Assembly (NCBI RefSeq): GCF_003334765.1
Contig: NZ_QOWT01000036.1
From: Escherichia coli
GTDB lineage: Bacteria > Pseudomonadota > Gammaproteobacteria > Enterobacterales > Enterobacteriaceae
Length of the DNA: 40,009 bases
Strand: one strand, 5' to 3'
Shown here: positions 12,917-13,026 of the stretch, piece after piece
Layout: each line of letters starts with the position of its first letter
Position numbering within the stretch: position 1 is the stretch's first letter
Notes under the pieces: generated by a model
What the model was told of the DNA's origin: nothing
The model's input: only the letters and a program-made list of their open reading frames with translations
Database searches by the model: none
Made by a program: the position numbers and the translations under genes

Positions 12917-12927
12917 ACGAACTTCCA

Positions 12928-12956
12928 TGATAATGAAATTAATTATCGTTATCGAT
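12928..12956. promoter_or_regulatory. Fur box in the fepD/entS divergent promoter region
   Basis: tgataatgaaattaattatcgttatcgat contains the hexamers gataat, attatc and gttatc, a good Fur operator, placed between the divergent fepDGC and entS starts. Confidence 0.65.
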
Positions 12957-13026
12957 CTTATTTGGATATGTTAGCATGTGCAGCCTAAGAATAGGTATTT
13001 AAAATATTTGATGGCAAGGCATTGTA

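Follow-up and report, generated by a model that had tools for sequence, protein, structure and literature searches.

The 110-bp spacer between fepD and entS, located in the window (the whole analysed stretch of Escherichia coli DNA, 40,009 bp in length), is almost certainly the classical fepDGC–entS (fepD–ybdA) bidirectional promoter-operator, in which one Fur operator is combined with two sigma-70 promoters and with leaders of 45 and 42 nt. The locus is a textbook case of one Fur operator for two divergent enterobactin operons, coding for the ferric-enterobactin permease (fepDGC) and the exporter (entS). Its control by Fur is already known, and papers by Christoffersen in 2001 and by Lavrrar in 2002 are said to be devoted to the fepD–entS control region. 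An earlier note made from the sequence had described the same region; its sequence observation was confirmed and its interpretation was partly right, and the only claim that it had added, a leaderless fepD, is wrong. The result matters little beyond correct annotation.

The 801 bp around the spacer are 100% identical to E. coli K-12 MG1655, and this stretch was found in 5417 of 5426 complete E. coli genomes. The spacer with 20 bp on each side reaches at least 99% identity in 5259 of these 5417 genomes, a level reached by the wider 801-bp stretch in 1748. The window thus holds the same locus as the promoter-operator of E. coli K-12, with the same 110-bp spacer, and nothing differs between them. 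Published coordinates were converted by subtracting 609273 from NC_000913.3 or 608496 from U00096.2 positions, and the conversion was verified with the −25 and −86 values of Chen (2007) and with the TSS strings of Kim (2012). When the RefSeq annotation of MG1655 was mapped onto the window, the start codons fell at 12916 (−) for fepD and at 13027 (+) for entS, in agreement with the extent given to the spacer in the earlier note. All species examined have a fepD ATG that begins an MS.S... N-terminus. All features are collected in Table 1.

Further along the fepDGC operon, the annotated overlap between fepD and fepG is 4 bp (11912-11915). The longest open reading frame of fepC (to 11067) runs well upstream of the annotated fepC start, which lies at about 10926 by coordinate conversion; this start would give a second 4-bp overlap, with fepG (region about 10923-11067). 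Such 4-bp overlaps at fepD/fepG and fepG/fepC are typical of a translationally coupled operon structure.

Table 1. Coordinates of the features of the fepD–entS control region in the window
Feature	Position	Strand	Basis
fepD CDS, 334 aa, first gene of fepDGC	11912..12916	−	RefSeq MG1655
fepD–entS intergenic spacer, 110 bp	12917..13026		MG1655 RefSeq annotation mapped onto the window
entS (formerly ybdA) CDS, 416 aa	13027..14277	+	RefSeq MG1655
Fur DNase I footprint (primary and secondary protection)	12898..12966		Lavrrar (2002) as given in Chen (2007), Table 3, PMC2189734
Fur box 19-mer A, GATAATGAAATTAATTATC, 16/19 to consensus	12929..12947		Consensus scan, conservation
Fur 19-mer B, GAAATTAATTATCGTTATC, 15/19, overlapping A, shifted by 6 bp	12935..12953		Consensus scan, conservation
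fepD TSS (A on − strand)	12961	−	Kim (2012), 621457, 81 reads, 5′ UTR 45 nt; mark in Warman (2026)
entS primary TSS	12985	+	Kim (2012), 621481, 4 reads, 5′ UTR 42 nt; Cappable-seq, U00096.2 621481
Minor second entS TSS, 14-nt leader	13013	+	Kim (2012), 621509, 6 reads
fepD 5′ UTR, 45 nt, with both Fur 19-mers and SD-like GGAAG (12926 to 12922)	12917..12961	−	TSS data
entS 5′ UTR, 42 nt, with SD-like AAGG at 13016-13019	12985..13026	+	TSS data
fepD extended −10, TGcTAACAT	12968..12976	−	Bottom-strand mark in Warman (2026), Table S2, text-extracted; 7 nt upstream of TSS; conserved
entS extended −10, TGtTAGCAT	12969..12977	+	Mark in Warman (2026), Table S2, text-extracted; 8 nt upstream of TSS; nearly invariant across genera
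entS −35 hexamer, TTATCG, 3/6 to TTGACA, 17-bp spacer	12949..12954	+	Leftmost hexamer of the construct in Warman (2026), Table S2, text-extracted
Assigned fepD −35, ACCTAT, very poor TTGACA match	12991..12996	−	Warman (2026), Table S2, text-extracted: the 'up' construct carries consensus TTGACA in its place

Transcription starts, leaders and the shared −10 element

A single TSS for fepD and two for entS were reported by Kim (2012) (PMC3415461, supplementary file 2). The accompanying 51-nt promoter strings are identical to window positions 13011 to 12961 (−), 12935 to 12985 and 12963 to 13013. Independently of that study, the primary entS start was recovered among the plus-strand starts listed from Cappable-seq (Ettwiller, 2016). 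On the bottom strand, the formatting marks in the text-extracted Table S2 of Warman (2026) (PMC12825309) place the Cappable-seq TSS at 12961, and the Cappable-seq starts marked there match both positions of Kim (2012), 12961 and 12985. The read counts were obtained in iron-replete or standard media and not under iron starvation. In the SMRT-Cappable-seq supplement, an entry for fepD or entS was not found.

From the closeness of the fepD start to the Fur box, the earlier note had deduced a very short or leaderless-like fepD 5′ UTR, for which it had proposed start-site mapping as a check. The published maps, with starts at 12961 and 12985, refute this idea and support the control by Fur. Transcription of fepD starts 45 nt upstream of the ATG (Kim, 2012), and an SD-like GGAAG with a conserved GGA core lies 5 nt before it. 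Both features set fepD apart from leaderless bacterial mRNAs, which it resembles only superficially, in that a regulatory site is near the start codon. The box forms part of the transcribed leader (+15 to +33), and this, not a short leader, explains its closeness to the fepD ATG; a short leader cannot be deduced from the proximity of a regulatory site to the start codon. In the entS leader, an AAGGC motif is conserved in the alignment.

A structured or regulatory RNA in the fepD leader was also considered. The predicted fold of the leader is no better than that of shuffled sequences (z = −0.34), and a search of the leader against Rfam gave nothing above threshold (Ysr283, 14.8 bits versus a gathering score of 58). 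The candidate was ruled out on these two results.

Both promoters have in common the pseudo-palindromic extended −10 sequence ATGTTAGCAT (12968-12977), which reads TGtTAGCAT rightward and TGcTAACAT leftward, so that positions 12969-12976 belong to the extended −10 elements of both fepD and entS. The fepD/entS region is one of five natural bidirectional promoters described by Warman (2026), with Cappable-seq TSSs 10-23 bp apart, and a fragment corresponding to window 12949-12996 yielded both divergent RNAs by in vitro transcription. The divergent TSSs at 12961 (−) and 12985 (+) fall within the range of about 10-23 bp that defines bidirectional promoters. Pseudo-symmetrical overlapping −10 elements, with TGn and TAnnnT on both strands, were present in 79 of 80 sequences when the observed variants were counted. 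The entS −35 hexamer reads TTATCG or TTATCT in 76 of the 80 sequences. Given the very poor −35 assigned to fepD, the promoter of this gene appears to depend on its extended −10.

In the text-extracted Table S2 of Warman (2026), 'fepD down' denotes a mutation in the −35 of the top strand (12949-12954), which serves transcription to the right, toward entS, whereas 'entS up' denotes a bottom-strand −35 changed to consensus (12996 to 12991) and oriented toward fepD. In this version of the table the fepD/entS labels seem swapped with respect to the genomic direction, unlike the acrA/acrR entries. A further consensus pair, TTGCCA-18-TATTCT (13017 to 12988), was dropped as a promoter, there being no TSS about 7 nt downstream in the data of Kim (2012) or among the plus-strand starts listed from Cappable-seq.

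The Fur operator and repression of both promoters

Scoring against the 19-bp Fur consensus GATAATGATAATCATTATC bore out the strong Fur-like site that had been noticed. The sequence GATAATGAAATTAATTATC is the sole match with at most three mismatches in the window, where shuffled sequences gave an expectation of 0.01, and it has the top score among all 19-mers on both strands. Its overlap with a second 19-mer at a distance of 6 bp is the usual pattern of Fur clusters. Between the fepD ATG and the box, the gap is 12 nt (12917-12928; box from 12929), exactly as the earlier note had put it. Relative to the mapped starts, 19-mer A occupies fepD +15 to +33 and entS −56 to −38. 19-mer B occupies fepD +9 to +27 and entS −50 to −32, and overlaps the entS −35 hexamer in all but one of its six bases. 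The operator therefore overlaps a promoter element or start site in such a way that binding can repress, the entS −35 being reached and fepD +9 to +33 being covered.

The earlier note had also considered that the box overlaps both promoter regions. This holds for entS, of which the −35 hexamer (12949-12954) is reached; the fepD −10 and −35 (12968-12996) are untouched. The box as drawn there (12928-12956) reaches entS −29, and 19-mer B reaches −32. The footprint of Lavrrar (2002), given by Chen (2007) (PMC2189734) as NC_000913 621394-621462, converts to fepD −5 to +64 and entS −87 to −19. Within the Fur protection so reported, only this extended DNase I footprint (to 12966) reaches fepD +1.

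Binding of Fur in vitro, for which footprinting had been proposed as a check, is documented in the literature by this footprint, as tabulated by Chen (2007), and by the shift of a fepD-entS oligonucleotide in EMSA at 150 nM Fur in the same study. There, the centre of the Fur cluster was placed at 621437, that is −25 from fepD and −86 from entS, and the cluster was located between promoter and translational start. The sigma-70 model of these authors gave no strong promoter overlapping the fepD-entS Fur cluster. Early microarrays showed no significant Fur repression at this locus (Chen, 2007), which is contradicted by later studies: in later genome-wide work, entS and fepDGC belong to the direct Fur regulon in CFT073 as well as in MG1655 and are described as strongly repressed genes. 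Together with the gel shift and the reported footprint, membership in the direct Fur regulon upholds the description of the spacer as a compact divergent promoter through which Fur controls fepDGC and entS.

At this locus, two sigma-70 promoters fire back to back from ATGTTAGCAT, the leftward start at 12961 giving the fepDGC mRNA with its 45-nt leader and the rightward start at 12985 the entS mRNA with its 42-nt leader. A single Fur operator lies on the fepD side of the −10 core, made of the two overlapping 19-mers (12929-12953) inside the footprint (12898-12966). In the model proposed for repression, Fe2+-Fur would occupy this operator under iron-replete conditions. On the entS side it would cover the −35 hexamer and the upstream DNA, both thereby denied to RNA polymerase, and on the fepD side the start site and the first 60 or so transcribed bp, which are needed by the open complex. 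With Fur placed over the entS −35 and over the fepD start and downstream DNA, one operator would therefore shut both promoters, and iron starvation would release both. Translation of fepD almost certainly proceeds from the annotated ATG at 12916, served by the SD-like GGAAG.

For fepD, we infer that repression is exerted by exclusion of the polymerase and not by a block of elongation. It is unlikely that, with the same architecture, Fur acts mainly as a roadblock to early elongation of fepD, initiation taking place at 12961 and the polymerase being stopped at the Fur-bound leader (+9 to +33). Both 19-mers do lie wholly downstream of the fepD start, in line with the position of the cluster between promoter and translational start according to Chen (2007), but the published footprint, as reported there, reaches 12966, which is fepD −5. 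DNA protection by an open complex extends to about +20, and Fur at +9 to +33 should thus clash with RNA polymerase. Exclusion of the polymerase and roadblock may both contribute at fepD.

On the entS side, the minor start at 13013 might sustain weak basal synthesis of the EntS exporter independently of Fur, a proposal which we consider quite unlikely. By reading of the sequence, a putative −10, TAAAAT, was assigned to this start at 13000-13005, which is outside the Fur footprint as given in Chen (2007) and in a poorly conserved part of the spacer. The start was not found among the plus-strand starts listed from Cappable-seq. If the proposal were true, the 'coordinately' repressed divergon would be asymmetric, with a Fur-independent start at 13013 on its entS side.

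An FNR ChIP-seq peak was reported over the fepD/entS spacer at about 12921 (U00096.2 621417), without an FNR-dependent change of expression (Myers et al., 2013). A search of the fepD–entS spacer for the FNR site TTGATnnnnATCAA gave no match with two or fewer mismatches.

Conservation in the Enterobacteriaceae and the start of fepD

A scan of one genome per species delivered 80 Enterobacteriaceae loci with entS, of which 70 distinct sequences were aligned. The sequence GATAATGATAGTAATTATC (17/19) is found upstream of entS in nearly all 80 loci. Across the alignment, the mean column conservation is 97% for the Fur 19-mers and likewise 97% for the shared −10, compared with 75% for the first 11 codons of fepD, 76% for the assigned fepD −35 and 62% for the distal spacer. 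The Fur site is conserved above the neutral background, and the box and the shared −10 are under strong purifying selection.

Box and −10 core are spaced by exactly 40 bp, with ATGnTAnCAT at this offset in 79 of 80 scored sequences. Four variants of the core were observed, ATGTTAGCATG (58), ATGTTACCATG (12), ATGGTAGCATG (6) and ATGTTAACATG (3), which vary only at 12971 and 12974. Either position serves as the 'n' of TGn for one strand and as position 3 of the −10 for the other. Variation of the module is limited to these positions, which the polymerase needs on neither strand. The comparison illustrates the concept of the shared −10 and is no discovery: Fur box and palindromic −10 form a rigid 40-bp module throughout the family. 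The distance from the box to fepD behaves differently, the conserved ATG lying 12 to 19 nt beyond the box edge depending on the genus. As this gap varies among genera, the 12-nt spacing is not a constrained feature.

In the eight species with longer spacers that were inspected, an extra 30-170 bp lies downstream of the entS start, in the entS leader, and the Fur/−10 module is intact. The eight loci belong to Raoultella, Intestinirhabdus, Superficieibacter and one Citrobacter, and the extra leader DNA is G+C-rich in the longer cases. Loci L041 (CACSKA010000002.1) and L033 concern a contig labelled 'Chryseobacterium sp. 18061', whose entS is of the Enterobacteriaceae type (81% identity) and is accompanied by the same Fur box; this assembly is probably mislabelled or contaminated.

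The alignment also bears on where FepD begins. In Escherichia, the minus strand has an ATG (12926-12928) that precedes the annotated fepD start by four codons; it adjoins the Fur 19-mer and lies inside the box as drawn in the earlier note. Initiation at this in-frame codon, at 12928, would give a protein of 338 aa (MEVRMSGS...) and a leader of 33 nt, and is very improbable. The codon opens the longest open reading frame, and an upstream in-frame ATG also occurs in Enterobacter-like genomes. Against it, no SD-like sequence precedes the codon, the GGAAG being located instead 5 nt before 12916; the Citrobacter and Salmonella loci shown, as well as other genera, read CAG at this place; and the 334-aa form is the one annotated in RefSeq. 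A fepD start at 12928 was ruled out on the missing SD and on conservation.

Minor secondary promoters were reportedly mentioned by Christoffersen in 2001. Likewise very improbable is a fepD promoter lying on top of the Fur box itself (−35 TCGATA at 12955 to 12950, 17-bp spacer, −10 TATCAT at 12932 to 12927), with a start at about 12920 and a transcript that is leaderless or has a leader of about 4 nt: the consensus scan gives this hexamer pair 9 of 12 matches and 12 nt separate the box from the ATG, but the single fepD TSS of Kim (2012) is 12961 with its 81 reads and none is given near 12920, the Cappable-seq TSS used by Warman (2026) is, according to the marks in the text-extracted table, also 12961, TATCAT is specific to Escherichia with TATCAA or TATCAG and thus loss of the critical final T in most other genera amid a conserved surrounding region, the conserved SD-like GGA between box and ATG would be unneeded by a leaderless mRNA, and the ATG-to-box gap differs among genera. 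TSS data and poor conservation thus ruled out TCGATA-17-TATCAT as a leaderless promoter.

Related control regions

The bidirectional promoters with a shared −10 studied by the Grainger laboratory (Warman, 2026; PMC12825309) likewise have divergent starts that flank one pseudo-symmetrical −10. Within this class, the starts of fepD and entS, 24 positions apart, belong to the 23-bp class and not to the commonest 18-bp class. The fepD/entS region differs further by an entS start 8 nt from the −10 instead of 7, and by a TGn extension of both −10 elements.

Two other control regions in the window, fepA–fes and fepB–entC, likewise serve divergent operons that are repressed by iron, and have Fur boxes in the spacer. 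According to Chen (2007) (PMC2189734) both were footprinted, separate footprints being given for fepB and for entC. With two operators, fepB–entC differs from fepD–entS, for which one footprinted region (621394-621462) and a gel shift are reported in that source. Fur-like 19-mers of weaker score (13-15/19) are located at 3381-3399 in the fepA–fes control region and at 15449-15467 and 15564-15582 in that of fepB–entC, in keeping with the footprints tabulated by Chen (2007). Compared with these two regions, the fepD–entS box is the best match to the consensus.
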